Assembly (NCBI GenBank): GCA_018238625.1
Contig: JABCSY010000091.1
Location: 1-16,821, forward strand
Origin: Promethearchaeota archaeon
Lineage (GTDB): Archaea > Asgardarchaeota > Lokiarchaeia > Sigyniarchaeales > SOKP01
DNA: 16,821 nt
Reading direction: 5' to 3'
Shown here piece by piece: positions 653 to 16,821 of this stretch. Within the stretch, counting starts at the first letter, position 1. Every line of letters begins with the position of its first letter. Both the position numbers and the translations under genes were made by a program. The notes beneath the pieces were generated by a model. The model saw only the letters and a program-made list of their open reading frames with translations, did not search any database and was not told where the DNA came from.

Positions 653-653
653 T

Positions 654-1265: not shown

Positions 1266-1340
1266 TATAAATACAAGTCTCTTTTATAGTTTTAAAATTG
1301 ATAAGTAATTGCGTAAAAAAGTACAGATTTTTCTTTTTTG

Positions 1341-1358
1341 ATTGTTTGATCAAACAAT
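1341..1358. promoter_or_regulatory. Perfect 18-bp palindrome ATTGTTTGATCAAACAAT, candidate operator of hdrCB
   Basis: Exact inverted repeat about 75 nt upstream of the hdrC start. On the minus strand it lies just downstream of a TATA-like TTATAAAT (1363-1370). Confidence 0.6.
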
Positions 1359-1665
1359 TTTAATTTATAATATTAAGAAGTGAAAAGAACTTTTTAATAA
1401 AAAATTTGTTATTGAATTTGGTAGTTAAAATGAGAGTAATAATTAATTGCAATGCCTATATGTTTTTTAAGTGGAATAATTCGCAAGAAAATTATGTTAA
1501 TTCGATAAAATGTGCCTTTTTTTGTTTAACTTAAAAAAAAAACATAGATTTTTTCTGCGAAAACCTACTAAACGATTTCGACAGAATTGTAAAAACATTT
1601 AAAAAATAAAACTTATTATATAAAATTTAGAGCGAATATGTTATTTTTTAAAGAGAGGTCGAATT

Positions 1666-1944
1666 TTGAAAAACGAACCAATTGCAGGTAACAAAGATCT
1701 TAAGCAATCAACAGCAAACGGAATTAGCGACGGTTCTGAAAAGATTACTAGAATTATTGAAGTAAGTAAGATCATGAATATTATGGAAAAGTCCGAAGAA
1801 GAAAAAGAAAAAATCATTATTATTCTCAGAGAAGAGATAAATTTAATAAAACAAATAAATCAAAAAATTATCGAAGAAAAAGATAAAACGATAGAACAGC
1901 TAAAAAAAAGACTAAAAAAGGAAACGAACTTCGCATTCTTATGA
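1666..1944 (+). CDS. Small hypothetical coiled-coil protein
   Basis: 92-aa ORF with a TTG start preceded by SD-like GAGGT. The C-terminal half is E/K/I-rich and heptad-like. It fills the space converging on the TPR gene (3-nt gap). Confidence 0.55.
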   Translation: MKNEPIAGNKDLKQSTANGISDGSEKITRIIEVSKIMNIMEKSEEEKEKIIIILREEINLIKQINQKIIEEKDKTIEQLKKRLKKETNFAFL

Positions 1945-1947
1945 TTT

Positions 1948-2427
1948 TTATTGGGTTTTATCTTCTGTTAAACCGCTTAAGAGTTTTTCAGCTTCAATAT
2001 TTGTAGGGTCAAATTTAAGGATTTCAGCAAAACAATGCATTGCTTTCTTAAAATCACCTAACGACTCGAATAATCGCCCTAAATTAAACCAAGTAGCGCT
2101 ATCCTGCGAGTCTATTTTAATGGCTTCTTCATAGCTCAAAATCGCATCTTGAGATTTTTCTAATTTTTCATATGCTACTCCTAAATTATACCACGCCCAA
2201 TTATCCAAAGGATCGATACTCACTGCTTTTTCGCAGCATTCTCGTTCTTTGTCGAAATTTTCTAACTTTTCGTAAGCAACTCCCATGTTACTCCAGGAAA
2301 CGCTACTTAACGGGTTAATCTTTACTGCTTTTTCAAAGCACTCTATTGCCTTTAGGTAATCTTCTGCTTTAAAATATTTCATTCCTAATTCGGACCAATA
2401 CAAGGCATTTTTTTTGTCTTTTGTCAA
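1948..2427 (-). CDS. Tetratricopeptide repeat protein (about 4 TPRs)
   Basis: Repeated 34-aa units with TPR consensus (W..LG..Y...A...Y/F..A..I.P), e.g. WSNMGVAYEKL, WYNLGVAYEKL, WFNLGRLFESL. Confidence 0.93.
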   Translation of the reverse strand: MTKDKKNALYWSELGMKYFKAEDYLKAIECFEKAVKINPLSSVSWSNMGVAYEKLENFDKERECCEKAVSIDPLDNWAWYNLGVAYEKLEKSQDAILSYEEAIKIDSQDSATWFNLGRLFESLGDFKKAMHCFAEILKFDPTNIEAEKLLSGLTEDKTQ

Positions 2428-2439
2428 TTAATTTCAGCT

Positions 2440-2655
2440 TTATTTTTTCTTAGATAATTCGTTCAAGTAATCTTTCTGTTTTTCTTCAGGTAAGAAAACT
2501 AATTCTTTTTTAACTTCTTTTAATTCGTCTTTTGATAGGTTTAAATCCATCAGTTGTTCTCTGACATCTTTAGACATTACAGTGAATATCTTTTGGAAAT
2601 ATTTTTTTACTACATCTAATTTTTCAAATCCCCTTTCTTTACTATTGTTACTCAT
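2440..2655 (-). CDS. Small helical hypothetical protein
   Basis: The ORF track starts at GTG 2664, but ATG at 2655 has an AGGTGG SD-like motif about 5 nt upstream and is the likelier start. The sequence is charged and helical and ends 12 nt before the co-oriented TPR gene. Confidence 0.65.
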   Translation of the reverse strand: MSNNSKERGFEKLDVVKKYFQKIFTVMSKDVREQLMDLNLSKDELKEVKKELVFLPEEKQKDYLNELSKKK

Positions 2656-2768
2656 GAGTTCCACCTATAGTTTTTTGATAAAAACAATATTTTGTTTTTC
2701 TCAATTCTATTTAGTAAAGTAAGAAAGTGGCTGTTAATAAAAAATATGGAGTCCAAATTTTTCAAAAA

Positions 2769-5639
2769 TTATTTTTTTTCAATTGGTAAAGTAAAGAAAA
2801 AAGTACTTCCTTTGTTTCGGCCTTCAGATTCGACCCATATCTTCCCATCGTGAAGGGCAATTAATTCTTTCGAAATGTACAAACCTAGCCCCGTCCCTTC
2901 GATGCCTACGTCCCATCCCTGGCCGTATCTTTCAATCTTACCAAACTGCGTAAAAAGTTGCGATATTTCTTTTTTAGTTAGTCCAATGCCGGTGTCCTTT
3001 ATCGAAATTACATAGTGATTGTTTTTTTGATGAGAATCAATTGTAATTGTACCACCTATAGGTGTATACTTGATTGCATTTATCAATAAATTGGTGATAA
3101 CTTCGTAAATTTTCTCTTTATCAAAATTCGTATATATATTGTTCTTTATATTTAGTTTAACCTTCTGCTCTCTTAATTGAGCCATACCTTGTAGTTGTTT
3201 AATACAATATTTGATTAAAAATGTAAGGTTCTCTCGTTTCTTTTTTAATTTCAACAACCCTTGATCTAATTGAGAACTATCGACAAGTGCGTTAATGTAA
3301 TCCTCAAGACGCTTACTACCGCTCTTGATCTCTTCTAAAATCGAAATAACATCGCTATCCAACTTTTTTGAGTGTAGTTTTAACAATAATTCAGTGAATC
3401 CTTTAATTGAAATTAAAGGGGTTTTGAGCTCATGAGATGTTCTACTGAACAAATCGCTTTTTAATTTGTTTATTTCGCTTAACATTCGGTTCTGTTCCTC
3501 CAAATGCTGTTGAGATTCCCACCGCCTTTGTTCTATTTCGAGAGCATCGCATATTAAGAATAATACTAATTTGTTTTGGTTAGTAATAGTTGGATTTTGT
3601 TGAAACAAAACGCAGAGTAAACTATTTAAGTCGTTTCCAGATAATATTAATTTACCATAACAAGCTTTGATACCGCTTTCAACTATATAACGATCAGATT
3701 TGGCATACTTCGTTTTATGAATGTCAAAGAATTCCTGAGTAAAGTCGTGATTTTCTTTAAATAACTCGCTTATGAATAAATCTTTCGTAAATTCTTCCGA
3801 AGTATAATTAGTGATTTCCCCCTTACTACTCATTACTCTATATTGCTCTTCTTCTTCATGATCGCTTTTAGTGATATATAGTACAATGTTTCCACTAAGT
3901 AATTTTAAGCAAGTTTTTAGCAATAATTCAATATTTTGCTGAATGTCCGTTGTGTAGTTTAAAAAATTAATATTTAACTCATAAATCAATTCTTCGTACA
4001 TTTTTTTTTCAGTGACGTCTTCTAACCATAGTCTAAAACTAATTAGATTATCTTTATCGTCGTATTGATTTAATCTTTTTCCTTGTAACCATTTTATTTT
4101 TCCTTTATTAGTCACAATTCTAAATTCGATATCCTTTCCCTCTTCTGAATTTAACAACTTTAGCAGATCGTCTGGATGAATTATTTCATCCATTAATTTT
4201 TTGTTGACATAGTCAACATCTTTATCTTGATACCCAATAAATTCTAATAATTTTGGATTAATGTAAGAAACGCTATTGTTTTCCAATTCTATTTCTAAAA
4301 TACCAATTGTTGATGTCTCTAATAAATCCTTATATTTTTCTTCTGAATCTTTAATCATTTTTTCAGCTAGTTCTTTTTCAGTAATATCCTCTACTGTAAA
4401 AATGATATTCTCAATTTCTCCGTTGTTCTTTAACAAAGGCGTTCCATTGATAGAAAGTAGAATATTTGTATTCGTAGATACCTTAAAAGTTGCATGAAAA
4501 TCAAATATTGGTTTTTTCGTTTTCATAATAATCTGAAAAGGGAGCTCATTCTTAGGAATATCTTTGCCTTCTGAGTCTAAAAATTTAAATTTATTAGTTA
4601 TAAATGTTTTTTTTAATAATTCTTCTTTAGGATAGTGTAAAACTTTTTCAGCTTGGGAATTGACATATGTAATATGGCCGCTCGTATCAACAGATAAGAT
4701 CCCTGCGGGATTAGTCTCCATGATCCGTTCTAATCTCTCATGTTGTTTACGCAAATTCTCTTCAGCGTTCTTCCGTTCGGTAATATCTTCAAAGGTAATC
4801 AAAAGTCCTGCAACTTTTCCATCAGAATTTAACAAAGGAATTCTATTTACATCTATCCAAATCTTATCTCCGTTTCTGAGGGTCCAAGATTCATTAGTAT
4901 GAAAAACAACTTTGTTAGATTCGATAACTTTCCTTTCTTGTTCTTTGTTAAATTGTATTTGATTCTTATCTAAAAGCAATTCTTCGTCAGTTTTACCTAT
5001 AATATTTTCGGGATGTTCAATCTCAATTAAATTGGCATAATTATCGTTACATCCGAGATAACTCAGATCAATATCCTTCCATATAATATATTGTGGAATA
5101 TTTTCTATGACCATCTGTAGCATTTCATAGCTGCTCTGTAAAGCTTCTTCATACTTTTTAGGATTAAATAATTTCCAAAAGCGTATTTCTGGGATAGTTT
5201 CTGTTATTTTTTTAAATCTATCTTCAGTTTCTCTTAAATTTCCTTCTATTTTTTTTTGTTTTGAAATATCTTTCAAAATAATTAAGATTTTCTCGTTTTT
5301 ATCCTCGTCGGTAAATTTTCTTGCTTTTATTTCCGCCCAAATTATTTCATCTTTCGTTGTAAATAGCATTATTTCTTGAAAATTACTAAAACTATCGATC
5401 TCCTTTTCTAAAAATTTTATCGTTTTTTTTTTATCTTCTGAAAATAGTATATTTAGGAAAGAATTTCCAACTAATTCGGTCTCAGCGTATCCTAATTTTT
5501 CCAATAATGGGCAATTGTTAATTAGCTCAATTTTGAAATCTTCTGTTTGATCTATAATCATCACCAAATCGGTAACAATTTCCATAAAAATTTGAAATTG
5601 AGTCTTAACATTTTCGCGCTTGTTATCGTCGGAAATCAA
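2769..5639 (-). CDS. Soluble multi-PAS sensor histidine kinase (4 PAS/PAC, GAF-like region, HisKA, HATPase_c)
   Basis: PAS ends DIS/DITERK/DITEK/DVTEK; H-box SRTSHELKTPL; N-box NLLINAIKY; G1 DTGIG; G2 GTGLGL. No transmembrane stretch. TTG start preceded by GAGG motifs. Confidence 0.95.
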   Translation of the reverse strand: MISDDNKRENVKTQFQIFMEIVTDLVMIIDQTEDFKIELINNCPLLEKLGYAETELVGNSFLNILFSEDKKKTIKFLEKEIDSFSNFQEIMLFTTKDEIIWAEIKARKFTDEDKNEKILIILKDISKQKKIEGNLRETEDRFKKITETIPEIRFWKLFNPKKYEEALQSSYEMLQMVIENIPQYIIWKDIDLSYLGCNDNYANLIEIEHPENIIGKTDEELLLDKNQIQFNKEQERKVIESNKVVFHTNESWTLRNGDKIWIDVNRIPLLNSDGKVAGLLITFEDITERKNAEENLRKQHERLERIMETNPAGILSVDTSGHITYVNSQAEKVLHYPKEELLKKTFITNKFKFLDSEGKDIPKNELPFQIIMKTKKPIFDFHATFKVSTNTNILLSINGTPLLKNNGEIENIIFTVEDITEKELAEKMIKDSEEKYKDLLETSTIGILEIELENNSVSYINPKLLEFIGYQDKDVDYVNKKLMDEIIHPDDLLKLLNSEEGKDIEFRIVTNKGKIKWLQGKRLNQYDDKDNLISFRLWLEDVTEKKMYEELIYELNINFLNYTTDIQQNIELLLKTCLKLLSGNIVLYITKSDHEEEEQYRVMSSKGEITNYTSEEFTKDLFISELFKENHDFTQEFFDIHKTKYAKSDRYIVESGIKACYGKLILSGNDLNSLLCVLFQQNPTITNQNKLVLFLICDALEIEQRRWESQQHLEEQNRMLSEINKLKSDLFSRTSHELKTPLISIKGFTELLLKLHSKKLDSDVISILEEIKSGSKRLEDYINALVDSSQLDQGLLKLKKKRENLTFLIKYCIKQLQGMAQLREQKVKLNIKNNIYTNFDKEKIYEVITNLLINAIKYTPIGGTITIDSHQKNNHYVISIKDTGIGLTKKEISQLFTQFGKIERYGQGWDVGIEGTGLGLYISKELIALHDGKIWVESEGRNKGSTFFFTLPIEKK

Positions 5640-5835
5640 TCTTATTCCTCTACCTCTAAGAACAAAACTTTTTAAAATCTCTAAATTTAGTGATTACTCT
5701 TCAAATACTGAAGTGAAGATTCTTTTATTTATATATTAGTATAATTATTGGTTTTTTTCGTAATGGTTACACAAACAATTAAGATAATTTTATTTTTAAT
5801 ATTAGAGAGTAGAAAAGATTATGAGTTTTGATAGT

Positions 5836-7698
5836 TCAATAACTATTAGCCCAACCAATATCGAGTTCATCCAATTTTATTTTTGAAGGAACGCCATTTT
5901 TGTCCCAGCCCATCATTTCGTAGTAGATGTTTTTGGCTTCACTGAATTTTTCTAAATCGATAGATGTTTCAGCTAGAGCTCCTGAAGTGTGAGGTTGGAA
6001 AAATCTATCTGGTAAACGATCGTCATCACTCGAAAATCCTTCTCTTAAGTTAAATATTCGGGTCATATTCATTATACGCTCGCCTACCTTCATCAATTCG
6101 AAAGTTGAGGTATTCCAACCAGTAACTGCTCTAACTATTTCTGTTTGCTCAAATGAATTCCACGGCACAAAATAGCACATTACGAGAGCATTGCCTAAAG
6201 CACCCCAATTCATCTGATATATTAAGGCTCGAACCTTTTGTGCGCTCAAATCGTCAAGTTGGAGTGGTGTTAATATTCCAAATGTATTAAAATTAGCTAT
6301 CGAGCCTTCACTTGCAATAACTGTATCGTGGAGATTGTGCATGTGTTCTGCTCCTGTAGGTGAAATCGTGTATCCTAACCCCAATCCTTGTTTTAAGCGT
6401 GGTTCGTGCATCGGAAGCTCTTGTCCCTTCACATGAATGGCGAATTCTTGCGCTCCGTTTTGAATTTTTTCGGCGGCTCTTTTTACACCCTCAGCTAAAA
6501 TATCTCCTAAACCTTCTCGCTTAGCAATTTTTTCAATCATTTGAATCATGGCTTGGGAATTACCAAACTTTAAGATTATCCCTCCAGTATCGGATTCATT
6601 TAATATGTTATTTTCAAAGCACTCCATGGCAAAACTAATGCTCATACCAGTAGAGATCGTATCAATTGAGTACTTATTACAAAGTTCATTAGCCTTACAC
6701 ACAGCTTTTAAGTCATAAATTCCACAATTAGAGCCGAAAGCGGCAAGTGTCTCGTATTCTGGGCCACCATATATTGGATCTACGACCCACGGTTCTTTAA
6801 TTTGTACCACCTTTTTGCATTTAATTGGACACGCAAAACAAGTTTCCATTTTTAGATTAATTTCTTCTTTGTTAATTTTAGGGTCTAGAGTCTTTGCCCT
6901 ATTAGTCCCCCCTGCTTTAAAATTTCGAGTTGGAAGGTTCCCTATAGTGGCAAACATTTCCATTACACCTCCACCAGTTCCATACGAGTAATATTCTTTA
7001 TAATTTTTCAAGTAGTTATTACTAAAAGAATCCCTTAATTCTCTTAACTTTTCCTTGTTAGCCACTTTAGGTCTCTTATTACCCCTCACAACTACGGCTT
7101 TAAGGTTTTTAGAACCCATGACGGCTCCCATACCCGTTCGACCCGCAGCGCTACGAAGATCGTTTATCACACAAGCGTATCGCACCAAATTCTCGCCTCC
7201 CGGGCCAATCTGACTTATATGCACAAATTTATCGTCTAATTCTTCAATTATTGTTTTTTGAGCTTCACCGGTTGTTTTCCCCCAGATATGGCTAGCGTCT
7301 CTTATCTCTACATTTCCATTTTTTATCCAAATAAAAATTGGGTTTTTTGCTTTTCCCTCAATGATTATTGCGTCGAAACCAGCTCTTTTTAACTCCGCCC
7401 CCCAATATCCCCCTACTTCAGCTTCGCCAAATCCATTTGTTAAGGGTGATTTTGCACCGACGCTATTTCTCCCCGCTCCCGCAATAGATACGCCCGTTAT
7501 AGGTCCTGTAGCAAAAACTAACTTGTTTTCGGGACCAAGAGGATCTATGTTAGGCTTTAATTCTTTTAGAAGATAATACGCAACAAAACCCTCTCCACCA
7601 ATATATTTCCTATAGAATATCTCTTCGGGATGTTCTACACTAATCTTATCATTTGACAAATTAATCCTTAAAATTTTGCCACTATATCCATATTCCAT
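5836..7698 (-). CDS. aor: Tungsten-containing aldehyde:ferredoxin oxidoreductase family protein
   Basis: Family motifs GYSGKILRINLS, AKSPLT, IGPGGENLV, AAGRTGMGAVMGSKNLKA, CFACPIKC (Fe-S ligands), GPEYET, DTIS, HVKGQELPMHEPR, YYEMMGWD; 620 aa. Confidence 0.95.
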   Translation of the reverse strand: MEYGYSGKILRINLSNDKISVEHPEEIFYRKYIGGEGFVAYYLLKELKPNIDPLGPENKLVFATGPITGVSIAGAGRNSVGAKSPLTNGFGEAEVGGYWGAELKRAGFDAIIIEGKAKNPIFIWIKNGNVEIRDASHIWGKTTGEAQKTIIEELDDKFVHISQIGPGGENLVRYACVINDLRSAAGRTGMGAVMGSKNLKAVVVRGNKRPKVANKEKLRELRDSFSNNYLKNYKEYYSYGTGGGVMEMFATIGNLPTRNFKAGGTNRAKTLDPKINKEEINLKMETCFACPIKCKKVVQIKEPWVVDPIYGGPEYETLAAFGSNCGIYDLKAVCKANELCNKYSIDTISTGMSISFAMECFENNILNESDTGGIILKFGNSQAMIQMIEKIAKREGLGDILAEGVKRAAEKIQNGAQEFAIHVKGQELPMHEPRLKQGLGLGYTISPTGAEHMHNLHDTVIASEGSIANFNTFGILTPLQLDDLSAQKVRALIYQMNWGALGNALVMCYFVPWNSFEQTEIVRAVTGWNTSTFELMKVGERIMNMTRIFNLREGFSSDDDRLPDRFFQPHTSGALAETSIDLEKFSEAKNIYYEMMGWDKNGVPSKIKLDELDIGWANSY

Positions 7699-7832
7699 CT
7701 TTAAACCTCTATATAATAAAATTTTGATTATTCTAAAAATTTATTATTCATAATCATAAATTATTTGATAAAACAGATTTTTTTGTTAAGTATGAATAAA
7801 TAAATTTCCAAAAAAATGAGAGAGATTATTTA

Positions 7833-8678
7833 ATGGAAACGGATGATTTTCTTAGATGTTTATCTTGTGGCAAAAAGTTGAGTTTAAAATCAATGAATGG
7901 AAGGACTCTATGCACAGATTGTTTGTTAAAATTAGAATTTAAAACGGATGATTTGGATTACAGCGAAATTAACAAGTACCTTCCAAATATTCTAAATTTC
8001 TTTGTTTCAGATGTGAATGCTGCGTTTAATAAAGATCCCGCTGCACGCACCTTAATTGAAGTGTTAACAAGTTATCCTGGGATTAAGGCCGTGTTATTAT
8101 ATCGTATAGCGCATTTTTTTTGGAAATTAAGACTACCATACATACCTAGATATATTTCCGGTATTGCACGAGATCTAACGGCAGTAGAAATTCACCCAGG
8201 TGCAGAAATTGGGTGTGAATTCTTTATAGACCACGGAGCAGGGGTAGTTATAGGGGAAACCGCTGAGATTGGAGACAACGTAACGATTTACGCAGGCGTA
8301 GTTTTAGGGGGTACTAATTTAGAACAAAAAAAAAGGCATCCAACTTTAGGTAATAATGTTGTTGTTGGAACTGGCGCTAAGATTTTAGGACCTATTACTC
8401 TTGGAGATAACGTGAGAGTTGACGCGAATTCCGTAGTTGTTAACGATGTACCTTCAAATTGCGTAGTCGTAGGGGTTCCTGCGAAAATAGTATCGAAAAA
8501 AGGAAAAAAAATCGAAAAAATTGATTTGCGCCACGGTGAACTTCCCGACCCAATTTCAATCGCTATCTCGAGTTTAAATAAGAGAATCGAAGAATTAGAG
8601 AAACATTTTCCACATATTTCGGAAACAACAGAAGAAGATATCGAAATATTTTACGGAGAAAATGGTAGTGGAATATGA
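7833..8678 (+). CDS. cysE: Serine O-acetyltransferase with N-terminal zinc-ribbon-like extension
   Basis: DPAAR...YPG, EIHPGAEIG, FFIDHGAGVVIGETAEIGD and KRHPTLG with hexapeptide repeats; C-terminal Ile; immediately upstream of cysK. Confidence 0.95.
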   Translation: METDDFLRCLSCGKKLSLKSMNGRTLCTDCLLKLEFKTDDLDYSEINKYLPNILNFFVSDVNAAFNKDPAARTLIEVLTSYPGIKAVLLYRIAHFFWKLRLPYIPRYISGIARDLTAVEIHPGAEIGCEFFIDHGAGVVIGETAEIGDNVTIYAGVVLGGTNLEQKKRHPTLGNNVVVGTGAKILGPITLGDNVRVDANSVVVNDVPSNCVVVGVPAKIVSKKGKKIEKIDLRHGELPDPISIAISSLNKRIEELEKHFPHISETTEEDIEIFYGENGSGI

Positions 8679-8719
8679 AGTAGATTATTTTTAATGATTG
8701 ATGGTTTTAAAATAAAAAG

Positions 8720-9658
8720 ATGAATTTAATGGCAAATTATTATAATAATATAGTTGAAGCAATTGGGAAAACGCCCTTAGTGAAATTAAACAGAATCACC
8801 GGAAGCGTTAAGCCAAATGTATTTGTAAAATTGGAGTTTTTTAATCCCGGAGGTAGCGTTAAAGATAGAATTGGAATGAACATGATACAGAAAGCAGAAG
8901 AGGAAGGTCTTATTAATAAAGATATAACCATTGTAGAGCCTACTTCTGGAAATACTGGCATTGGTTTAGCGCTCGTGTGTGCGTCAAAAGGATATAAAAT
9001 AATTTTAGTAATGCCCGAAAGCGTAACTATCGAGAGAGTCCAAATTCTTAAAGCTTATGGTGCTGAAGTGGTTTTAACACCAAAAGAAGGCGGTATGAAA
9101 GGATCGATTTCAAAAGCGGAAGAAATAGCTAAAGTAAAAGGAAAAGTTTTCATCCCTCAACAATTTAAAAACCTAGCAAACCCAGATGTACACCGAAAAA
9201 CTACGGCTTTAGAGATATTTAACGATTTAGCCGGCCAAGTGGATGGGTTTGTTGCTGGAATAGGGACTGGGGGAACAATAACAGGTGTCGGTGAGGTATT
9301 AAAAGATAGGGTTGGTGCGAGAATGAAGGTTTACGCAGTAGAACCTAAAGAATCTGCGATCCTATCAGGTGAGAAACCAGGACCTCATAAAATCCAGGGT
9401 ATAGGGGCCGGGTTTATCCCCGAAGTGCTAAACGTCAAAATTTACGACAAAATTATAACGGTTGACTACAATGATGCCATCGAGACGGCTAGAAAATTAG
9501 CTAAAATGGAGGGCATATTCGTTGGAATTTCAGCAGGAGCTTGCGCATGGGCAACAATTCACGAAGCTTCAAAAGACTTCGTAGAAGGGGAAAATATCGT
9601 GGCACTCTTACCTGACGGAGGAGAAAAATATCTCTCAACAGAATTGTATCGCTTTTAA
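8720..9658 (+). CDS. cysK: Cysteine synthase A (O-acetylserine sulfhydrylase, PLP-dependent)
   Basis: IGKTPLV, NPGGSVKDR (PLP lysine), EPTSGNTGIGLA, QQFKNLAN, GIGTGGT, HKIQGIGAGFIP, PDGGEKYLST. The true start may be ATG at 8729. Confidence 0.97.
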   Translation: MNLMANYYNNIVEAIGKTPLVKLNRITGSVKPNVFVKLEFFNPGGSVKDRIGMNMIQKAEEEGLINKDITIVEPTSGNTGIGLALVCASKGYKIILVMPESVTIERVQILKAYGAEVVLTPKEGGMKGSISKAEEIAKVKGKVFIPQQFKNLANPDVHRKTTALEIFNDLAGQVDGFVAGIGTGGTITGVGEVLKDRVGARMKVYAVEPKESAILSGEKPGPHKIQGIGAGFIPEVLNVKIYDKIITVDYNDAIETARKLAKMEGIFVGISAGACAWATIHEASKDFVEGENIVALLPDGGEKYLSTELYRF

Positions 9659-9704
9659 GTAAAAATCCTAAATAAAAATATAAAAATAGTTAAAAAATTT
9701 AATT

Positions 9705-10601
9705 CTATTCTATTAACGCTGTTTCTATCAATAAGATATCGTAAATTTTTTTCCAATATTCCTCGATGTTCCAATTCAATTTATTTTTAATCTTATCAGA
9801 TAAATCAGTAAACACGTCTTTAATCTTTAAAGTGTGAAAATAGTTAATTAATGGCGCGATAACTGCAATCATATATTGTTTTTCTCCAAATCTTTCTTCT
9901 TTATCAGGATACGAATCAAAAAAAAGATATCCACGGCTATTTAGATTGTCAATATTTAATAACACACCTTCAGCTTTAGTGATTTTGTCGTGGCCATAAA
10001 TGGAAGTTGCTACAGAAAACAATTGGTTTGAAATGTCGTTTAAGGATATGGAAAAGTCTTTTTCTTCTGGGTAATAACAATTTAATTCGGGGCCAAACTT
10101 GTCGTCCCAAAACGTTAGCAATAAGCAAATAAATTCTCCTTGCTCACTAGTAGCTGGCATCTTCATTTCAATATTCATAGTTGAAAAGACTTCGTCGATT
10201 TTGTTGTTTAAAGTCTTTACTCTGTTAATACGTGCTATTCTGCCAGATATTATAGCTAACAAGTCTTTCTCGTCAAAAGGTTTTGTTAAATAATCGTCTA
10301 CTCCTAGCAACTTTCCAAGCCTTATATCTTTAGGAGTAGTGCGAGCGGAAAGAAACACGAAAGGAATTCGATTCCATCGTGGTTCGTTGGATATCGCTCT
10401 AAAGAATTCATAACCATCCATTTCAGGCATCATTATATCGCTAATAATAATATCAGGAACTTGTTCGAGTTCCGAAAGAATTTTTAGAGCTACTTTTCCG
10501 TTTTTCGCTGTAATTGTTTTATAATTGTTCGATTCTAACATTAAATTTAAATTGTACAACAAATCAACGTTATCCTCAACAACCAGAATTAGAGGTTTCA
10601 A
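9705..10601 (-). CDS. Response regulator: N-terminal REC domain plus putative C-terminal longin/uDENN-like output domain
   Basis: Intact REC: VVED, phospho-acceptor D55 (SDIMMPEMDG), FLSA, K107 (YLTKPF). The C-terminal domain starts LLLTFWDDKFGPELNCYYP, resembling the longin/uDENN beta1-beta2 pattern F-D-x3-GP-x5-YP. The REC call is secure; the output-domain call is pattern-based. Confidence 0.9.
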   Translation of the reverse strand: MKPLILVVEDNVDLLYNLNLMLESNNYKTITAKNGKVALKILSELEQVPDIIISDIMMPEMDGYEFFRAISNEPRWNRIPFVFLSARTTPKDIRLGKLLGVDDYLTKPFDEKDLLAIISGRIARINRVKTLNNKIDEVFSTMNIEMKMPATSEQGEFICLLLTFWDDKFGPELNCYYPEEKDFSISLNDISNQLFSVATSIYGHDKITKAEGVLLNIDNLNSRGYLFFDSYPDKEERFGEKQYMIAVIAPLINYFHTLKIKDVFTDLSDKIKNKLNWNIEEYWKKIYDILLIETALIE

Positions 10602-10665
10602 ATCAAATCTGACTGAATTTGCGTTTTTTTAGTTATCTATTAGGATAGAATAAGAAGAAATTAGC

Positions 10666-12885
10666 TTATAATCTTTTTTCTATTATTGGTAGAAAAATAG
10701 AGAAAGTTGATCCTTTACCATATTCGCTTTGAGCCCATACGTCACCATCGTGAAGTTTTACTAGCTCTTTCGCGATAGGTAATCCTAATCCTGAGCCAGG
10801 AATATCGCTTACTTGTTCAGATCTAAAAAATCTTTGAAAAATTAGTGGTAAATCTTCTTCCGAAATTCCTATTCCATAATCATTGATCTGGAACAAAACA
10901 CCATCTTTTTCATCTATGTTGTGTTTCCCTTTGTAATGATTAGTGGCTCTAATCTCTATATTATTATTCTGCTTTGAATATTTTATGGCGTTATCGATAA
11001 TAATACGGAAAATTTGGTCAATTTTCGTTGTATCCCCATATAATTTAATGTTTTTATCTACATCTACGCTAAAAGTAATATTTTTCTCATTTCCAATAGG
11101 CTCCATTAAAGTTAATATGTCATCAATAATCGTGAGTGGATTATATTCGACCCACTTTAATTTAGTTTTACGCTCGTCTATTTTTGATAGCGTCAAAATA
11201 TCGTCTACTAATTCTTTTAGAAGATAAATGTTTCTTTTGATTCCTTCTTCTAATTTTTTAATTATGTCTGGAGTAACAGAATCAGAATGATTATCTAAAA
11301 AATCAAGCGACATAATTAAAACCGAAATTGGAGTTCGTAATTCATGCGATACTGTTGACACAAAGCGTTCCAAACTTCCTTCAGCTTCTTTCCGAGCTGT
11401 TATATTCATGCCATAAATATTTGCATATCCCCTATCTTTCATTGGTACAATGAAAAGAGTGTAAATTTGATCTTTAATGTTCAACTCTATTTCTAAATCT
11501 AGGTTCTCAGAAAAAGACTTATTAACGTGTTCCCGTAAAACCTTAGGGATTTTACTCCCTTCTCCGATTAAGAATAACTCTTGACTCGCTTTATTTGCCA
11601 AAAGAATGTATTTGTTACTTACTCTTAACACGGGGTTAGGATTTTCTGATGGAAACCTTGCCATATCCGCAATTTTTTCTTGCGCGATCTTACGCTCAGT
11701 AATATTAGTATAATTTTGTATAATTCCAATGAATTCGCCATTTGTGTTTTTATGGGGAACTGTTCTTACAAGACTAACAATTGTAGTATCGTCATCGAAT
11801 TTTGTAACTAATTCGTATTCAAAATGACCTTTTCCTTCTTGTATTTGATTCCTCGAACATATTTCTGTATGACATCGATGTTCGTACCCTAATTGAAGGT
11901 CGTAACATTTTTTACCAATAAGGTCTTCTTTGGATAAGCGGAAAAGAGAAGAGTATGTCTCGTTAACGCGCACGATTTCGCAATCATTGCTGATTACCCT
12001 CAATGGTAGAGATGCGTTGAAGATTTGGCTAAATTCAGAGTACGCTTGTTCTAATTGGTCCGCTTTTTCAATCGAAGATTCCTCGCTCAACTTCAACTTC
12101 CTAAATAATAAATCAAAGGGGGTTTCTATGCCCAATTCGATTACTGCCTTGTAGACAAAGAAAAAGGCAATTATTTTAAAAATGTGACCAATAAAATTTG
12201 AGAAGCCAAATACACTAATATAGAAAGTAAACGCCAATTCTGAAATCATTGTAGCAATAATGGATATAACAATTAAAAGAAATATTTTCTGAGCAAACTC
12301 GTCTTTATGCTTGTATAGCACTATTAGTGTAACTAAAAGAATTGCATCAATTACGTATTCACTAATTATTTTAAAAGGAGTTAGCCCCGAACCTTCGATA
12401 TAACATACAGGGAAGAAACCCTGAAATATGGTGGTTAATAAAATAAGAATTGCAATGATATAGCTTACGAATAAATAATTAGCACTAATCTTTTTTTTGA
12501 TGACCATGGAAGCAAATAAAAAGGAGAGCGCTTGCCAATATCGGGCTACAATCCACAATTGCGTTGGAAGATTCGCGTCATATTCAAGGAATACGCCCAT
12601 TCCTGAGTAAGCTAAGGTGTGAAGTAAATCTATTACACTTACGAAGAGAAAAGAGACGCCTAACACCAAAAAGAAGGAACTATTCATGTATTTTCTTGAG
12701 TGCCAGCCAATAAGAAAAACTCCTCCTGAAATAACAACACTGATTACTTCTATAATCGAATGAAAAAGTAAGAAACTGTAGAGACTTGCTAAATAAGTAA
12801 GAAATAACCCTACAATTAATATTGCATATTCAATCGACTCACGCCGACTTATCGATGCTTCTGAATCGTTCTCATTGTCAAGCAA
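10666..12885 (-). CDS. Membrane sensor histidine kinase (MASE3, PAS, short PAS-like, HisKA, HATPase_c)
   Basis: About 7-8 hydrophobic helices with MASE3-type motifs LLFHSIIE, IDLLHTLAYSGM, NLPTQLWIVARY, GHIFKIIAF; PAS ending NITERK; H-box STVSHELRTPI; IIDNAIKY, DYGIG, GSGLGL. Confidence 0.93.
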   Translation of the reverse strand: MLDNENDSEASISRRESIEYAILIVGLFLTYLASLYSFLLFHSIIEVISVVISGGVFLIGWHSRKYMNSSFFLVLGVSFLFVSVIDLLHTLAYSGMGVFLEYDANLPTQLWIVARYWQALSFLFASMVIKKKISANYLFVSYIIAILILLTTIFQGFFPVCYIEGSGLTPFKIISEYVIDAILLVTLIVLYKHKDEFAQKIFLLIVISIIATMISELAFTFYISVFGFSNFIGHIFKIIAFFFVYKAVIELGIETPFDLLFRKLKLSEESSIEKADQLEQAYSEFSQIFNASLPLRVISNDCEIVRVNETYSSLFRLSKEDLIGKKCYDLQLGYEHRCHTEICSRNQIQEGKGHFEYELVTKFDDDTTIVSLVRTVPHKNTNGEFIGIIQNYTNITERKIAQEKIADMARFPSENPNPVLRVSNKYILLANKASQELFLIGEGSKIPKVLREHVNKSFSENLDLEIELNIKDQIYTLFIVPMKDRGYANIYGMNITARKEAEGSLERFVSTVSHELRTPISVLIMSLDFLDNHSDSVTPDIIKKLEEGIKRNIYLLKELVDDILTLSKIDERKTKLKWVEYNPLTIIDDILTLMEPIGNEKNITFSVDVDKNIKLYGDTTKIDQIFRIIIDNAIKYSKQNNNIEIRATNHYKGKHNIDEKDGVLFQINDYGIGISEEDLPLIFQRFFRSEQVSDIPGSGLGLPIAKELVKLHDGDVWAQSEYGKGSTFSIFLPIIEKRL

Positions 12886-12916
12886 AATATATCCCTTCCT
12901 TTTCTTATTTTTATTT

Positions 12917-13468
12917 TTATATTCCTAATTTTTGAAAAACAGTAAATATCGATGTTTTGTAAATCTGATATGTAAAATCGTTTGGAATTACTTCTTTTAT
13001 ATTCCTGATTAATTCAGAAACCGCTTTTTCGCTAAAATCTTTATTTGTTAATTCCAAATCTGGGTCGTATTTATGTAAAAATACAGAGAAATCTACATTT
13101 ACATTATGTTTCCTTAATAGGATAACGATTTTATCTAAGTAGTCTAACGAGATATCAAATCGCTCCTGATCTTGGACGTCCAATACGTAAATGAACTTAT
13201 TGGTTTTTTTTATGTGGTTTTGAAAGTCGTTTAAATAACCTTCTCGAAATTGTTCTTGTCCACCGAAATCCCAGATGCTATATTCCGAGCCTAACGCTTG
13301 AAACTTATTAATTTTAAAGCCTCTCGTAGGATTTAATGAGGAAAACGACGAAAGATTTTTCATACCCTTCAAACATAACACAATAGATGTTTTTCCGGAA
13401 TTGTCTAACCCCATAATTAAAACTTTTTTTGCGTTAATTATTGTGTTTTCTCTCATCGCTGTATTCAT
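12917..13468 (-). CDS. Small Ras-superfamily GTPase, Arf/Rag(Gtr)-like (eukaryotic signature protein type)
   Basis: G1 GLDNSGKTS, G2 PTRG, G3 WDFGGQ, G4 HKYD, G5 TSI; 183 aa, single domain. Confidence 0.92.
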   Translation of the reverse strand: MNTAMRENTIINAKKVLIMGLDNSGKTSIVLCLKGMKNLSSFSSLNPTRGFKINKFQALGSEYSIWDFGGQEQFREGYLNDFQNHIKKTNKFIYVLDVQDQERFDISLDYLDKIVILLRKHNVNVDFSVFLHKYDPDLELTNKDFSEKAVSELIRNIKEVIPNDFTYQIYKTSIFTVFQKLGI

Positions 13469-13497
13469 TTTAATAATAAATTAAAAAAATGGATTAA

Positions 13498-13833
13498 TCA
13501 TAATAACGTATCTATAACGTCTAAATCTCTCAAATCTTTGAGCTTTTCTTGGTTGATTTTCACAACAAAAGATTTTATTTCTTCTACGAGCTTAAAGATA
13601 TTAGGATTCTTAATTTTATAGGATTTAACATTATTAATTTTATCAAAAATAATGAGGTTTTTGTTACTTAGAGCCTTTAAGTGTTGAGAAATCGTAGATT
13701 GAGACTTGTCTAATGCTGTTTGAATTTCAGAAGAAGTCTTTTTCTCATATCGTAATAAATCTAGTATATCTAACCGAGTCTGATCTGCTAAAACCCTTAA
13801 AAACTCAATAAAATCTATTTTACTTTCACTCAT
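13498..13833 (-). CDS. ArsR/SmtB-family winged-helix transcriptional regulator
   Basis: LRVLADQTRLDILDLL...SEIQTALDKSQSTISQHLKAL matches the ArsR HTH pattern; 111 aa with no Cys. Confidence 0.9.
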   Translation of the reverse strand: MSESKIDFIEFLRVLADQTRLDILDLLRYEKKTSSEIQTALDKSQSTISQHLKALSNKNLIIFDKINNVKSYKIKNPNIFKLVEEIKSFVVKINQEKLKDLRDLDVIDTLL

Positions 13834-13999
13834 TTAATAATATCCTATTGTATTTTATGTATATTGATTTTAATCGCTTTTAAAGATATTTTTAATGATT
13901 TATTAATATTAATTAAAATTTTATTAATAAAGTATCGTAACATTTATATATCGGCATATCGTTATTAACCAATATAAGTAAAAAAATTAAAAATTTAAG
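13834..13999. promoter_or_regulatory. Divergent promoter region between the ArsR cluster and the Lrp gene
   Basis: Very AT-rich 166-nt gap. TATA-like TTTATATA at 13943-13950 overlaps an imperfect inverted repeat ATATCG-N6-CGTTAT (13948-13965). A TTTAAAAG lies on the minus strand at 13877-13884. Confidence 0.55.
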
Positions 14000-14527
14000 A
14001 TGGAGATAATGGAAAGTCAAGTCTTTAAAATCGACGAAATAGACAAGAGCATAATTGAATTAATTCAAAAGGAACCTATGCTAACTCATACAGAAATCGC
14101 AAAAAGAGTCGATCGGAGCCAACCCACAATCGGTATGAGAATTCGGAAGCTTGAAAAAGCGGGAGTCTTAAAATTTCAAGCTGGTATAAATGTTAAAACC
14201 ATGGATTTAATCCTTGCACGAGTAGAAATTCAAACTTTAGAACCAAACGAATTAATAGAATTAGTTAAAAGATGTCCATATATGTTAAACGCATTTCGAC
14301 TGAGTGGTACTTTTAATCTCAGCGTTCTTGTAATGGGATCTAAATTAGCTCATATTGATGAGATGGTTAACAATCATTTTAGAAAGAATTCTAAAGTCTC
14401 TTCGGTTTATATGGATATAATTACCGATGTTACAAACGATTTTGTATTGCCATTTGACTTTAATTTCGAAAGCTGTAGTTTAAATTCAAGTGGTGAATGT
14501 TGTAAAAAATGTTTTAACCTAAATTAA
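14000..14527 (+). CDS. Lrp/AsnC-family transcriptional regulator with Cys-rich C-terminal tail
   Basis: IDEIDKSIIELIQ...THTEIAKRVDRSQPTIGMRIRKLEKAGV HTH, then a RAM-like domain (FRLSGTFNL). ATG at 14009, preceded by GGAG, may be the true start. Confidence 0.9.
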   Translation: MEIMESQVFKIDEIDKSIIELIQKEPMLTHTEIAKRVDRSQPTIGMRIRKLEKAGVLKFQAGINVKTMDLILARVEIQTLEPNELIELVKRCPYMLNAFRLSGTFNLSVLVMGSKLAHIDEMVNNHFRKNSKVSSVYMDIITDVTNDFVLPFDFNFESCSLNSSGECCKKCFNLN

Positions 14528-14737
14528 TAAAATTATTATTTCTTTATTTGGATATACATCCATGCGAGCGCTGGACTAATTTTGTGATTTACAATTGATA
14601 GCTTGGATAAAATATTTTCCACTTCTTTTAGAGCATAACTCGATTGGATGGAACCTAACGGTTTGTTAATCTCTTTTAAGGGTTCAAGAACTACTATTTT
14701 ACTTATAAAAGCTAAAAACCCGTAAAATAAATTCAAT

Positions 14738-16453
14738 TCATGAAGCTGTAGGTACTCCAGGAATGAAGTAGGAATCTCTAAACCACAGGTTTCTCTGGAT
14801 GTTAACGCAAGGATTACCAACGCTTCTATGGTGGACTGCCATGACCATATCGAAAGAAACTGGTAAGGCGACGTAGAGTTCATTAACCGCTCTATCTTGA
14901 ATCTTATACAATAGCTTAGCTTTTTCTGTTGTATCTGTTTCTTGCTCGTATTCCGCTAACCATCCCATAATTTCTGGGTCGTTGAGTTGAAGGTGGTTTG
15001 CGCTAGACAAATTACTTAATAAAGGCTCAATCATGGCGAATGGGTCCAAGTAATCTGGTACATAACCGGTATACCAAATACCAAGTATATCATAATTTAT
15101 TGACCAAATATACTCCCATGGTTCAAATGGCTCAAAATCATAACCATATACATGAATACCAATTCTATCCATGTCAGCAGCAAATGCGAGATTCATTTCT
15201 ATTCCAGCACTCCATCCTGAATGTTCTAAAATATAATATGTTATAAGGTTTAGCGCGGACCAAGCGGCATCGTTAGTTGCATTCACACCCCAATCTTGAG
15301 ACGTAAGGCCAGCGGTTTCAGTAGGTCTTGCTGCCATCATTGCTTCTCTTGCGATTGTAACGTTCCAGTATGGCGCTTTAAAGGTTGCGTTGTAGTATGG
15401 GAATCCAGGCGGTAAGTATTGATGTGCTCGAATTGCGTAACCTTGACGGATGACGTCAATGAAATAGGAGTAATTGTATGCGTAGGCAATAGCTTTTCTT
15501 ACGAGAGTTTCGTTGATCTTACGATTGTTTAATCCAAAGTATCTAAAAATTGTACTTGTTCCTAAATTTACAAAAATTAAATCTGGATCAGCTATATATA
15601 AGTCAATCATAGAGGTTAGAGCTCCTCCTGCGTCTACTTCACCACCTAACAAAGCGTTGGCGGCAGCTACGCTATCGGGGTAATAAACCCAAATTACTTC
15701 GTCCCAAAAGGTGTTAGGACCCCAATACATGTCAAATCGTTTAAATCTCATTTCATAGCCTAGAAACAAATGTACGTATTCGAAAGGGCCAGTTCCAGTC
15801 AGGATATCTCTCTCGAGTTCTAAGTACTCAGTTGCGGGAGTTGAATCTGGGTGTAAAATTGCACAAGCGTCATAAGTAAGTAAAGGAACGAAAATAGCGT
15901 TTGGTGCGTTTAAGAAAAAGGTAACGTTGTATTCGCTATTAATTACAGTCTTGTTAAGGATTGATATGCCTTGCATATTGATGAATAAGCTCGCAGGATC
16001 GCAAAGACGTGAGTAATTTGGTAATGTACCGGTTGCGTTGATGAAATAGAGAATTCTGTCGAAAGTAAATTTCACTGCGGTCGCATTGAATAAAGAACCG
16101 TCGTGGAAATAAATGTTTTCCCTTAGAATAACTTCTACTTGATCTTTAGCGGTATTATATTCGTAACTCGTTGCTAAACGCATTTGGAGCGCAAAATCAG
16201 GATCGCAGAGGTCGTAGTACCATAAATTGTCGCAAACTTGTCTTATCACGTCATTAGAAACGCTATCCCATGAATCGACGGGATCCAAAACTGCAGGGGC
16301 GGAATTTTCTGAACAGGCGTATTTCAGTACGTTTAATTCTGGAGGTGATCGAACCTCTCTACCCATTATTTCTAATACGACATTGCCCACACCAGAACCG
16401 ATTAATGCTACGATAAGAACCATTATTGCGACGTTTTTCTTTTCCTTTTCCAT
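14738..16453 (-). CDS. ABC transporter substrate-binding protein, family 5 (OppA/DppA-like), N-terminally membrane-anchored
   Basis: Basic N-terminus plus hydrophobic helix; LDP, LRENIYFHDGSLFNATAVKFTFDR (SBP5 signature region), GTGPF, VRKAIAYA, YVPDYLDP. Confidence 0.92.
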   Translation of the reverse strand: MEKEKKNVAIMVLIVALIGSGVGNVVLEIMGREVRSPPELNVLKYACSENSAPAVLDPVDSWDSVSNDVIRQVCDNLWYYDLCDPDFALQMRLATSYEYNTAKDQVEVILRENIYFHDGSLFNATAVKFTFDRILYFINATGTLPNYSRLCDPASLFINMQGISILNKTVINSEYNVTFFLNAPNAIFVPLLTYDACAILHPDSTPATEYLELERDILTGTGPFEYVHLFLGYEMRFKRFDMYWGPNTFWDEVIWVYYPDSVAAANALLGGEVDAGGALTSMIDLYIADPDLIFVNLGTSTIFRYFGLNNRKINETLVRKAIAYAYNYSYFIDVIRQGYAIRAHQYLPPGFPYYNATFKAPYWNVTIAREAMMAARPTETAGLTSQDWGVNATNDAAWSALNLITYYILEHSGWSAGIEMNLAFAADMDRIGIHVYGYDFEPFEPWEYIWSINYDILGIWYTGYVPDYLDPFAMIEPLLSNLSSANHLQLNDPEIMGWLAEYEQETDTTEKAKLLYKIQDRAVNELYVALPVSFDMVMAVHHRSVGNPCVNIQRNLWFRDSYFIPGVPTAS

Positions 16454-16821
16454 CTTAAATTCACTTAAATTTTAATTTTTATTATAGAAAGATTTGTTGC
16501 TAAAGATCTTTTAGAATACGTAAACTTATAAAAATTTTCTTTTTCATAATTCCTTGTTCTTTATATAGATAGAAGAGGGTTGCTCGGGAATGCGCGATCA
16601 AACTATGCGAGGATGGACGATGTATGGGGGATTGCGATAAATGTGAGCTCTGTAAAAACAAGTATTACGCGTGGGGGGATGAATCCTAAAATAAGCGGTA
16701 CACAACAACAAAAAAAAAAGGTTATAACAAACATTTTTTTATATCATTTCTTGTTTTAATGAGTAGAATTAAAGAGTTAGAACAAACATTTTTATTACAT
16801 TAACAACAAATTTTTAGCATA

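Follow-up and report, generated by a model that had tools for sequence, protein, structure and literature searches.

In eukaryotes, GTPases of the Rag and Arf kind are acted on by longin-containing GTPase-activating protein (GAP) complexes: FLCN-FNIP2 for RagC, NPRL2-NPRL3 of GATOR1 for RagA/B and C9orf72-SMCR8 for Arf. These complexes are compared here with a gene cluster on the minus strand of a 16,821-nucleotide (nt) stretch of DNA from Promethearchaeota archaeon (Lokiarchaeia; contig JABCSY010000091.1, positions 1 to 16,821; this whole stretch is referred to as the window). Four open reading frames (ORFs) in a row encode an ArsR regulator, a small GTPase, a MASE3-PAS histidine kinase and REC-X, a response regulator in which a receiver (REC) domain is followed by an output domain, X, with a modelled longin fold. 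The REC-longin protein probably acts on the co-encoded GTPase. Somewhat better than an even chance is given to a fuller reading, a two-component pathway with a GTPase regulator and no transcription factor as its output, in which a dimeric longin acts as GAP on the co-encoded GTPase and is gated by the kinase through phosphorylation of D55.

Parts of this arrangement have precedents in archaea. Fusions of NPRL2-like longins to two-component domains were described in Asgard archaea by Liu et al. (2020 preprint, 10.1101/2020.10.19.343400), who suggested that growth regulation in Asgard archaea is still centred on two-component systems with 'eukaryotic' regulators, and the 'NPRL2-like longin domain' is a standard category of Asgard annotation (PMC9834061). 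PMC12290439 describes Asgard longins of 'FLCN/SMCR8-type' in which a GP motif is combined with an arginine finger; its accessible text poses the question of Arf-related or Rag GTPases as their partners and leaves it open. Both reports concern the same phylum, the same kind of longin and the same idea of a two-component system feeding a eukaryote-like regulator, and the window locus is very probably one of the fusions of Liu et al. No partner GTPase is named for these fusions in the accessible text of the preprint, whereas here a family of Rag-like G domains is tied to X by gene context, fusions and a predicted interface. REC-NitrOD3 of ammonia-oxidising archaea (Galperin et al., PMC5847659) is likewise an archaeal receiver with an output domain of the Roadblock/LC7-longin superfamily, but it is Roadblock-related and from a different phylum, and the accessible text mentions no GTPase partner.

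Bacterial small GTPases are linked to two-component proteins in the conservon and in Frz/RomR/MglA-MglB (PMC4316618). In the Streptomyces conservons (CvnA-D) and in the Myxococcus Frz/RomR/MglA-MglB system a sensor kinase or phosphorelay is combined with a regulator of the roadblock/longin superfamily and a Ras-superfamily GTPase, often co-encoded (PMC4316618, PMC12236503). These systems have an MglA-type GTPase, an MglB roadblock protein and no receiver fused to the GTPase regulator, whereas the window encodes what its model indicates to be a GAP-type longin and a GTPase of the Rag/Arf kind. The conservon is made up, according to the accessible text of PMC4316618, of a kinase-like sensor, an MglB roadblock protein, a DUF742 protein and an MglA-type GTPase, with no response regulator; the window cluster has a response regulator and, by Pfam, neither DUF742 nor a separate roadblock gene.

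Neither a conserved cluster of ArsR, Rag-like GTPase, MASE3 kinase and REC-longin, nor a specific GTPase partner for a REC-longin, nor WD, GP and Arg together on one chain was found in the text, without figures or supplements, of open-access papers and preprints; the architecture may be shown in Figure 5c or the supplements of the preprint by Liu et al., or in the data files that accompany PMC12290439. An earlier note, made from the sequence of the window, had presented the cluster as a candidate new system. This was overstated with respect to the longin-two-component fusions of Liu et al. and the bacterial links between GTPases and two-component proteins, which precede it; the pairing with a GTPase and the operon are the part not found in print. 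The general idea is already in print, and the analysis supports the interpretation given in that note as far as it is testable in silico.

The output domain and the co-encoded GTPase

The features of the two proteins are, with positions in the window:

9705-10601, minus strand: REC-X response regulator, 298 amino acids, TTG start
10248-10589, minus strand: receiver (REC) domain of REC-X, residues 5-118 (Pfam Response_reg, 4.2e-24), with D55 at 10437-10439
10179-10271, minus strand: long linker helix, residues 111-141, which extends the last receiver helix to the output domain (DSSP on the AlphaFold2 model mcf24c77dd491)
9708-10151, minus strand: longin output domain X, residues 151-298 (from fold models and structure searches)
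12917-13468, minus strand: small GTPase, a bare G domain of Rag/Arf-like type, 183 amino acids (Pfam)
13388-13411, minus strand: P-loop GLDNSGKT of the GTPase, residues 20-27
13319-13333, minus strand: switch I NPTRG of the GTPase, with T48
13256-13273, minus strand: WDFGGQ of the GTPase, residues 66-71, with Q71
13064-13075, minus strand: HKYD of the GTPase, residues 132-135
12944-12955, minus strand: TSIF of the GTPase, residues 172-175

TTG must be the start of REC-X because only nine further codons lie upstream in the stop-to-stop frame (307 amino acids) and because the next methionine, M21, would cut away strand 1 and D10. The receiver has the acidic pocket, the phospho-acceptor Asp, the Ser/Thr and the Lys (D10, D55, S85 and K107). 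In an alignment of 68 homologues D10 is conserved in 63, S/T85 in 66, Y104 in 64 and K107 in 66; Asp at position 55, which the earlier note had taken as the phospho-acceptor, is found in 67 of the 68. The AlphaFold2 model of full-length REC-X made from this alignment is a confident two-domain model, with a mean predicted local distance difference test score (pLDDT) of 88.4, a predicted template modelling score (pTM) of 0.84 and pLDDT of 91-98 over residues 1-80 of the receiver. We infer from the model that the linker helix could serve as a dimeric stalk. The close homologues of REC-X, where named by the source, are response regulators of Lokiarchaeota or Promethearchaeota.

Residues 135-298 of REC-X gave no family match in Pfam or NCBIfam. 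A Foldseek search with the full-length model returned receiver domains alone among the matches listed, and X was therefore modelled separately. The model of X alone (58 sequences; pLDDT 81.2, pTM 0.77) has the same topology as X in the full-length model, and in both DSSP gave the longin order of secondary structure, b-b-a-b-b-b-a-a, with a five-stranded sheet. With this model Foldseek found four matches in the PDB at E <= 1e-3 (9e-5 to 1e-3), each of them a chain from GATOR1 or FLCN-FNIP2; next in the list came the active FLCN GAP complex, DENND10, the Lst4 longin and a longin from Lokiarchaeota. The VIA structure search against 48,161 chains, in which chains are labelled by complex and the subunit is not assigned from the chain letter, gave the following matches:

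6nzd_H, chain of the FLCN complex (FLCN-FNIP2): Z 13.0, root-mean-square deviation 2.4 A, 130 residues aligned
4zy8_C, Lst4 longin: Z 12.7
8yqg_B, Lokiarchaeota longin: Z 12.3
7o2w_A, C9orf72-SMCR8: Z 11.5
6lt0_B, C9orf72-SMCR8: Z 10.6
8fw5_C, GATOR1: Z 10.2
Generic longins, adaptin sigma/mu and roadblock/MglB chains: Z 7-10

By its modelled fold X is thus a longin, and among solved structures it stands closest to the longins of Rag/Arf GAP complexes. A longin output domain had been proposed from the letters, and the strand order and the VIA and Foldseek matches to these GAP longins agree with that proposal. The ESM Atlas gave a lead only, with a neighbouring archaeal cluster at score 0.93, in which 19% of the members have NPR2, and a eukaryotic C9orf72-like/NPR2 cluster at score 0.76.

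Two other folds were considered for X and dropped. Roadblock (MglB-like) chains, with Z 7-8.6, score below the GAP longins, and the pair of C-terminal helices typical of longins is present in X. A PAS-like ligand-binding domain was backed just by weak Foldseek rows, with E > 0.01.

The most conserved residues of X include a GP motif of the kind described for eukaryotic GAP longins. WDDKFGP (residues 165-171, 10089-10109) runs in the model from the end of strand 1 into strand 2, whose first residues are G170 and P171, and R237 (9891-9893) is located in the loop between strands 4 and 5, neighbouring WDxxxGP. Among 58 sequences W165 is found in 57, D166 in 50, G170 in 57, P171 in 57 and R237 in 52. 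A GP motif is found at the same structural position in C9orf72, SMCR8, FLCN and NPRL2, where it spatially adjoins the arginine finger, and is missing from FNIP2, NPRL3, adaptins, TRAPP and DENND proteins; C9orf72 has, with W33-D34 and G38-P39, the same WDxxxGP spacing as X (all in the accessible text of PMC12290439). Judged from its residues, X joins on one chain features that are split between the subunits of the eukaryotic heterodimers.

The GTPase is over the Pfam cut-offs of both Arf (5.4e-22; 78.5 bits against a cut-off of 22.3) and Gtr1_RagA (1.8e-21; 77.1 bits against a cut-off of 22), and has the characters of a Gtr1/RagA-type as well as of an Arf-type G domain. All G motifs are present in the sequence, so that the set G1-G5 is intact as first reported, with HKYD as G4, i.e. 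HKxD rather than NKxD. In 39 GTPase sequences G20, N23, G25, K26, T48, D67, G70, Q71, H132, K133 and D135 are invariant. The best solved relatives by sequence are the Lokiarchaeota Rag-like proteins 8yl2_A (9.3e-28) and 8zla_A/9m28 (2.1e-19), followed by Arl3 (1e-13), RagC (4e-11) and Gtr1 (3e-10), with Arl3/Arf chains at 1e-13 to 1e-9. At 342 and 385 residues, the two Lokiarchaeota relatives are longer and include a C-terminal domain. Because it is a bare G domain without a roadblock domain, the GTPase is called Rag-like and is not filed as a Rag. Proteins of the Arf family have an N-terminal amphipathic helix with Gly2 for myristoylation; the N-terminus of the GTPase is MNTAMRENT, without Gly2.

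A complex of two copies of X (domain residues 18-164), the GTPase, GTP and Mg was predicted with one alignment per protein. The median score of this 2:1 complex was 0.64 (0.64, 0.77 and 0.51 in the separate runs), the best control having 0.04; in the calibration 116 of 157 solved complexes reach that mark, as do 2 of 215 mismatched pairs. Between runs at least 72% of the contacts are shared, with a partner pLDDT of at least 77. The first copy of X is in contact through domain residues 31-38 (WDDKFGPE, 165-172 in the full-length protein), 103-104 (R237 and F238) and residues of helix 1, and the second through residues 33-37 and 103. On the GTPase the interface takes in part of the P-loop (residues 22-23), of switch I (NPTRG, 46-50) and of switch II (QEQF, 71-74), and the contacts of lowest error connect G170 and its neighbours to Q71. 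The predicted geometry is as expected for an arginine-finger GAP with the GTPase seated across the longin dimer. A complex prediction of the kind suggested in the earlier note, here with two copies of X and the co-encoded GTPase, passed its controls.

Compared with FLCN-FNIP2, GATOR1 and C9orf72-SMCR8, X is alike in the longin fold, in GP at the start of strand 2, in WD as in C9orf72 and in an Arg in the adjacent loop. The client is likewise Rag/Arf-like, and the GTPase is predicted to lie across two longins with its nucleotide pocket towards them. In contrast to the eukaryotic heterodimers X is encoded by one gene and is presumably a homodimer, with WD and Arg in each subunit and no divided roles. 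X also differs from the eukaryotic GAP longins in having no DENN or NPRL2-specific C-terminal domain and no profile similarity, in being fused to a receiver and in having a co-encoded kinase, and the GAP activity is here a predicted one.

The same interface would also suit a different activity. The longin could bind the GTPase in the role of guanine nucleotide exchange factor (GEF) or as a nucleotide-state-specific platform or effector, with an Arg that is structural or reads the nucleotide; this is considered unlikely. Most longin/roadblock modules work as a GEF or a platform, such as DENN, Mon1-Ccz1, TRAPP and Ragulator, and longins of this type are among the VIA matches (DENND1A 6ekk_A with Z 9.8, TRAPP 7b6d_H with Z 10.0 and Mon1-Ccz1 with approximately Z 8). 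Such proteins are mainly GEFs and only now and then GAPs (accessible text of PMC13408092). An interface over both switches suits a GEF or an effector too, and synteny, fusions and complex fit this reading as well as they fit a GAP. It is opposed by the GP motif, typical of GAP longins and lacking in the proteins listed above (PMC12290439), which X combines with a conserved Arg, and by the top structural matches of X, which are longins of GAP complexes.

Gene context and distribution in the phylum

X matches 166 cluster representatives at E <= 1e-3 in a library of 1.84 billion proteins, mostly REC-X proteins of about 295 amino acids. It is found in 145 of 400 genomes of the phylum and in 119 of the 134 genomes of the window's own family, with one copy in the genome of the window. 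From 150 listed matches 60 loci of approximately 14.5 kb were taken, consisting of the 40 best-per-genome matches with enough flank and of 20 that are lower-scoring, paralogous or distant; G251, G245, G260, G218 and G123 were left out as too near a contig end.

The order and strand GTPase, MASE3 kinase, REC-X, here called canonical, is found in 37 of the 60 loci (tblastn with the window proteins), 20 of them in the window's genus, 14 in a second genus, two in a third and one in a fourth. Of these 37 loci, 36 have ArsR upstream in the same orientation; the remaining locus, L113, ends before that position. Every one of the 37 has a kinase core on the strand of X, 460-560 nt upstream of it. Another 10 of the 60 loci have the GTPase within 7 kb in a different arrangement (tblastn). 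A profile of the GTPase gave a match in 51 of the 60 loci, with 0.17 expected per 14.5 kb from its density in the window's genome, and a single GTPase query gave 14 places in the 4.29-Mb genome, i.e. 0.047 per 14.5 kb; these frequencies are not probabilities, since related genomes are not independent.

The rearranged loci keep the association in several forms. Loci L164, L166 and L168 have a divergent kinase, REC-X and then a Rag-like GTPase of 182-184 amino acids directly downstream. In L160, from another family of the phylum, REC-X, a Rag-like protein of 462 amino acids and a PAS kinase are on one strand, with about 9 nt between the first two. L159, again from another family, has a kinase, REC-X, a 168-amino-acid protein and three GTPases; in L152 a hybrid kinase and REC-X are followed by two small ORFs and then by a Ras-like and a Rag-like GTPase. 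In L157 ArsR, GTPase and REC-X are present and a kinase is not. X is furthermore fused behind Ras-like or Arf-like G domains in P0138, P0177, P0258 and an ORF of L167, and WD..GP and the Arg are kept in all four fusions. The conserved linkage that the earlier note had asked for is thus present, in 37 of 60 loci and four genera as well as in rearranged and fused form.

The X tree and the tree of the nearest GTPase, each with 48 loci, have their major clades in common, including a separate clade of the L164, L166 and L168 paralogues. X and the GTPase were therefore duplicated as a pair. Pairwise distances of X and the GTPase correlate with r = 0.79, and much of this correlation is explained by shared species history.

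The gene context also bears on the possibility that there is no direct functional link, the GTPase being a neighbour by vertical inheritance and X a ligand-binding or dimerisation output with another target. Most canonical loci are from related genera of one family, the one in which 119 of 134 genomes have X, and their order could be inheritance; X is also found with PAS, RsbRD_N and DUF1638 and without a nearby GTPase, and weak PAS/LOV fold matches are present lower in the Foldseek list. Against this, the link recurs in other gene orders, in other families (L159 and L160), in the co-duplicated paralogue module and in direct GTPase-X fusions, the frequency of the GTPase near X is far over the genome background, and the predicted interface consists of exactly the most conserved residues of X. 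The absence of a functional link is regarded as highly improbable.

Some further observations were made in the searches. Between REC-X and the downstream GTPases of L159 (6444-6950, minus strand) and L152 (6311-6784, minus strand), both from another family of the phylum, there is an unannotated protein of 157-168 amino acids without a Pfam family, which could be a further component of the module. A contig search with the whole protein gave mostly bacterial receiver domains, and L002, from a Sigynarchaeum metagenome-assembled genome (MAG), was the sole clear full-length relative (47%, residues 2-290). A Bacteroidota sequence, L036 from a Larkinella MAG, has 29% identity to residues 3-289 of REC-X. 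The close REC-X homologue P0057 has the source label Nanopelagicaceae bacterium, which may be a binning error or may indicate a rare bacterial relative. In the same genome as the window, L170 (G000:C13, 1267-2685, plus strand) encodes a 472-amino-acid protein with a Folliculin-like stretch (79-140, E 0.0034, sub-threshold) before a Gtr1/RagA G domain, and L171 (G000:C122) has an ORF of at least 142 amino acids with a weak Folliculin match, divergent from a Rag-like GTPase of 343 amino acids. On the sequence matches these two loci are further pairings of a longin and a Rag in the same organism.

The kinase, the regulators and the neighbouring genes

The remaining genes of the cluster and the regulator that travels with it are:

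13498-13833, minus strand: ArsR/SmtB-type winged-helix regulator, 111 amino acids, first gene of the cluster, with the helix-turn-helix at 13651-13785
10666-12885, minus strand: MASE3-PAS membrane sensor histidine kinase, 739 amino acids, TTG start
12118-12786, minus strand: MASE3 domain of the kinase (Pfam)
11689-12012, minus strand: PAS domain of the kinase (Pfam)
11173-11373, minus strand: HisKA domain of the kinase (Pfam)
10684-11037, minus strand: HATPase_c domain of the kinase (Pfam)
14000-14527, plus strand: Lrp/AsnC-family regulator, 175 amino acids, divergent, travels with the cluster (HTH_24 3.5e-12, HTH_AsnC-type 1.3e-09)

The four genes are separated by 29 nt (13469-13497), 31 nt (12886-12916) and 64 nt (10602-10665). 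Co-orientation, gaps and gene identities (ArsR, small GTPase, MASE3-PAS kinase and a REC protein) had all been given in the earlier note, and are confirmed by the list of ORFs and by Pfam. Read by eye the gaps are AT-rich, with a T7 run 3' of ArsR and a purine-rich stretch before the kinase, GGAAGGG, a few bases 5' of the TTG start; none of these is decisive. Four sequencing runs yielded just short contigs, 90-99% alike; their sources are one metatranscriptome and a library that probably consists of DNA. They give no usable bridging of the junctions and are uninformative on transcription.

The kinase matches MASE3 (4.2e-80), PAS_9 (2.6e-09), HisKA (3e-13) and HATPase_c (5.3e-27) in Pfam and has the two parts of a two-component kinase, a HisKA domain with a phospho-accepting His, H514 (11344-11346) within the H-box SHELRTP, and HATPase_c. 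It matches the NCBIfam subfamily MASE3_PAS_HK at 1.7e-110, under the cut-off of that model, and is the sole MASE3 match of the genome (tblastn). Its pairing with the receiver of REC-X is supported by adjacency only.

The flow could also be reversed or looped, as has been proposed for the actinobacterial conservon, with the GTPase as input to the kinase or the receiver and the REC-longin reading the GTP state for another target. In conservons a histidine kinase occurs together with an MglB-like roadblock protein and a small GTPase, and their interactions rely on both catalytic activities (accessible text of PMC4316618 and PMC12236503), the GTPase gene is upstream of the kinase gene in the window, and the cluster encodes no downstream target of the GTPase. 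The receiver, however, keeps every phospho-acceptor residue, and the adjacency of kinase and REC, the most constant feature of the loci, is the usual sign of a forward flow from His to Asp. L157 keeps GTPase and REC-X without a kinase, and Pfam found no DUF742/CvnC-like gene in the cluster. Only a slight chance is given to reversed or looped flow, and the forward direction, from kinase to longin to GTPase, is preferred.

ArsR matches HTH_5 in Pfam (1.1e-13) and HTH_metalloreg in NCBIfam (1.9e-16), over the cut-off. A homologue of the AsnC regulator is upstream on the opposite strand in most canonical loci. Amino acids are the usual signals of Lrp-type regulators, and an amino-acid-sensing type of regulator beside a Rag-like module is suggestive by analogy. 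The C-terminal tail of this regulator is Cys-rich, with five Cys in the last 18 residues.

Of the other genes in the window, a hexapeptide-repeat acyltransferase and a PALP enzyme (7833-9658, plus strand) are convergent on the end of the REC-longin gene and are probably a serine acetyltransferase and a cysteine synthase; the PALP gene is kept at that position in the window's genus and in some others. A second histidine kinase (2769-5639, minus strand) has 956 amino acids, looks soluble and has four PAS stretches and no adjacent receiver gene, and a TPR protein of 159 amino acids (1948-2427) is found just downstream of it. A 115-amino-acid ORF without a family (14536-14883, minus strand) overlaps the end of a solute-binding-protein gene of 571 amino acids (14738-16453) and is probably not a gene.

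Proposed mechanism and its meaning

In the favoured mechanism a membrane or redox signal at the MASE3/PAS kinase would set the kinase activity, and phosphotransfer from His514 to Asp55 would alter how the receiver and its helical stalk are arranged in the dimer. By this change the two longin domains would come together in a composite groove or leave it, and from the groove the WDxxxGP hairpins and Arg237 would extend to the GTPase at its P-loop, switch I and Gln71 of switch II. The longin pair would bind the GTP form, with Arg237 as the arginine finger, and the phosphorylation state would set the rate of GTP hydrolysis by GAP activity and hence the on or off state of the GTPase. Expression of the cluster would be controlled by ArsR, and perhaps by the divergent Lrp/AsnC regulator too. 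What the analysis shows is the domain content, the fold, the conserved motifs and the linkage of the genes; we infer co-transcription, phosphotransfer, dimerisation, the direction in which the effect runs and an activity of GAP and not of GEF type.

Several findings weigh against this mechanism, or parts of it. The GTPase ends at residue 183 and lacks the C-terminal roadblock domain of a true Rag, through which Rag proteins dimerise. The match of R237 to the eukaryotic arginine finger, which points into the nucleotide pocket of the GTPase, is a putative one, judged from its conservation (52 of 58 sequences), its place in the strand 4-5 loop and its part in the predicted interface. Two PAS-X proteins (L154 6464-7468, plus strand, and P0140) and the long REC-X relative P0197 lack the conserved Arg, and P0197 also lacks WD; by analogy such Arg-less proteins may be non-catalytic partners or regulators, like the finger-less subunits of the eukaryotic heterodimers. 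Loci without the GTPase number 13 of 60 by tblastn, one of them with just 607 nt upstream, and 9 of 60 by profile, and L144 and L146 carry it on the opposite strand. Other fusions of X are with PAS, RsbRD_N, DUF1638 and kinase modules, as would be expected of a generic module for output or dimerisation, and the run of seven T between the ArsR and GTPase genes could terminate transcription. The alignments and riding ligands of the complex prediction differ from those of the calibration of its score, and the complex may have passed through its likeness to solved ones (GATOR1-Rag, FLCN-RagC and C9orf72-SMCR8-ARF1) and not because this pair binds. Most longins are GEFs or platforms and not GAPs.

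The sequence profiles point the same way. The X profile had no match among PDB sequences at E <= 10, Pfam on the 58 X sequences gave nothing significant (Folliculin model in 1 of 58, at E 0.19), and Pfam NPR2 (PF06218) was over the cut-off in none of 400 genomes of the phylum, with three sub-threshold matches unrelated to X. X has no significant profile match to NPR2, Folliculin or C9orf72-like families. In the window's own genome NPR2 had no match, and Folliculin (PF11704) had two sub-threshold matches elsewhere and none on the window.

A wider evolutionary reading is possible but rather doubtful. The cluster may be a surviving example of the state ancestral to the eukaryotic Rag/Arf longin GAPs, a homodimeric longin with the WD of C9orf72 type and the GP and arginine finger of FLCN/SMCR8/NPRL2 type on one chain, acting on a Rag-like G domain without a roadblock domain and switched by His-Asp phosphotransfer. 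Rag-type control dependent on nutrients or stress would then have begun as an output of two-component signalling, and FLCN-FNIP, NPRL2-NPRL3 and C9orf72-SMCR8 would have evolved later by duplication and division of labour.

Asgard archaea have many small GTPases and many longin and roadblock proteins, and the pairings of regulator and GTPase are largely unmatched. In MK-D1 the genes for GTPases do not as a rule share operons with regulators of this sort, which 'makes matching ... difficult' (accessible text of Tran et al., PMC10933270). The cluster gives a concrete candidate pair of small soluble domains, of 183 and about 150 amino acids, with a defined switch in D55 and defined residues in W165, G170, P171 and R237, and names a testable GTPase partner for the archaeal longins. 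Its main value is that a published open question becomes a simple biochemical experiment. If the protein is a phosphorylation-gated GAP, the GAP-type chemistry of longins would be older than the eukaryotes and two-component signalling would have driven it, as was suggested by Liu et al., in the accessible text of the preprint, from domain fusions alone.

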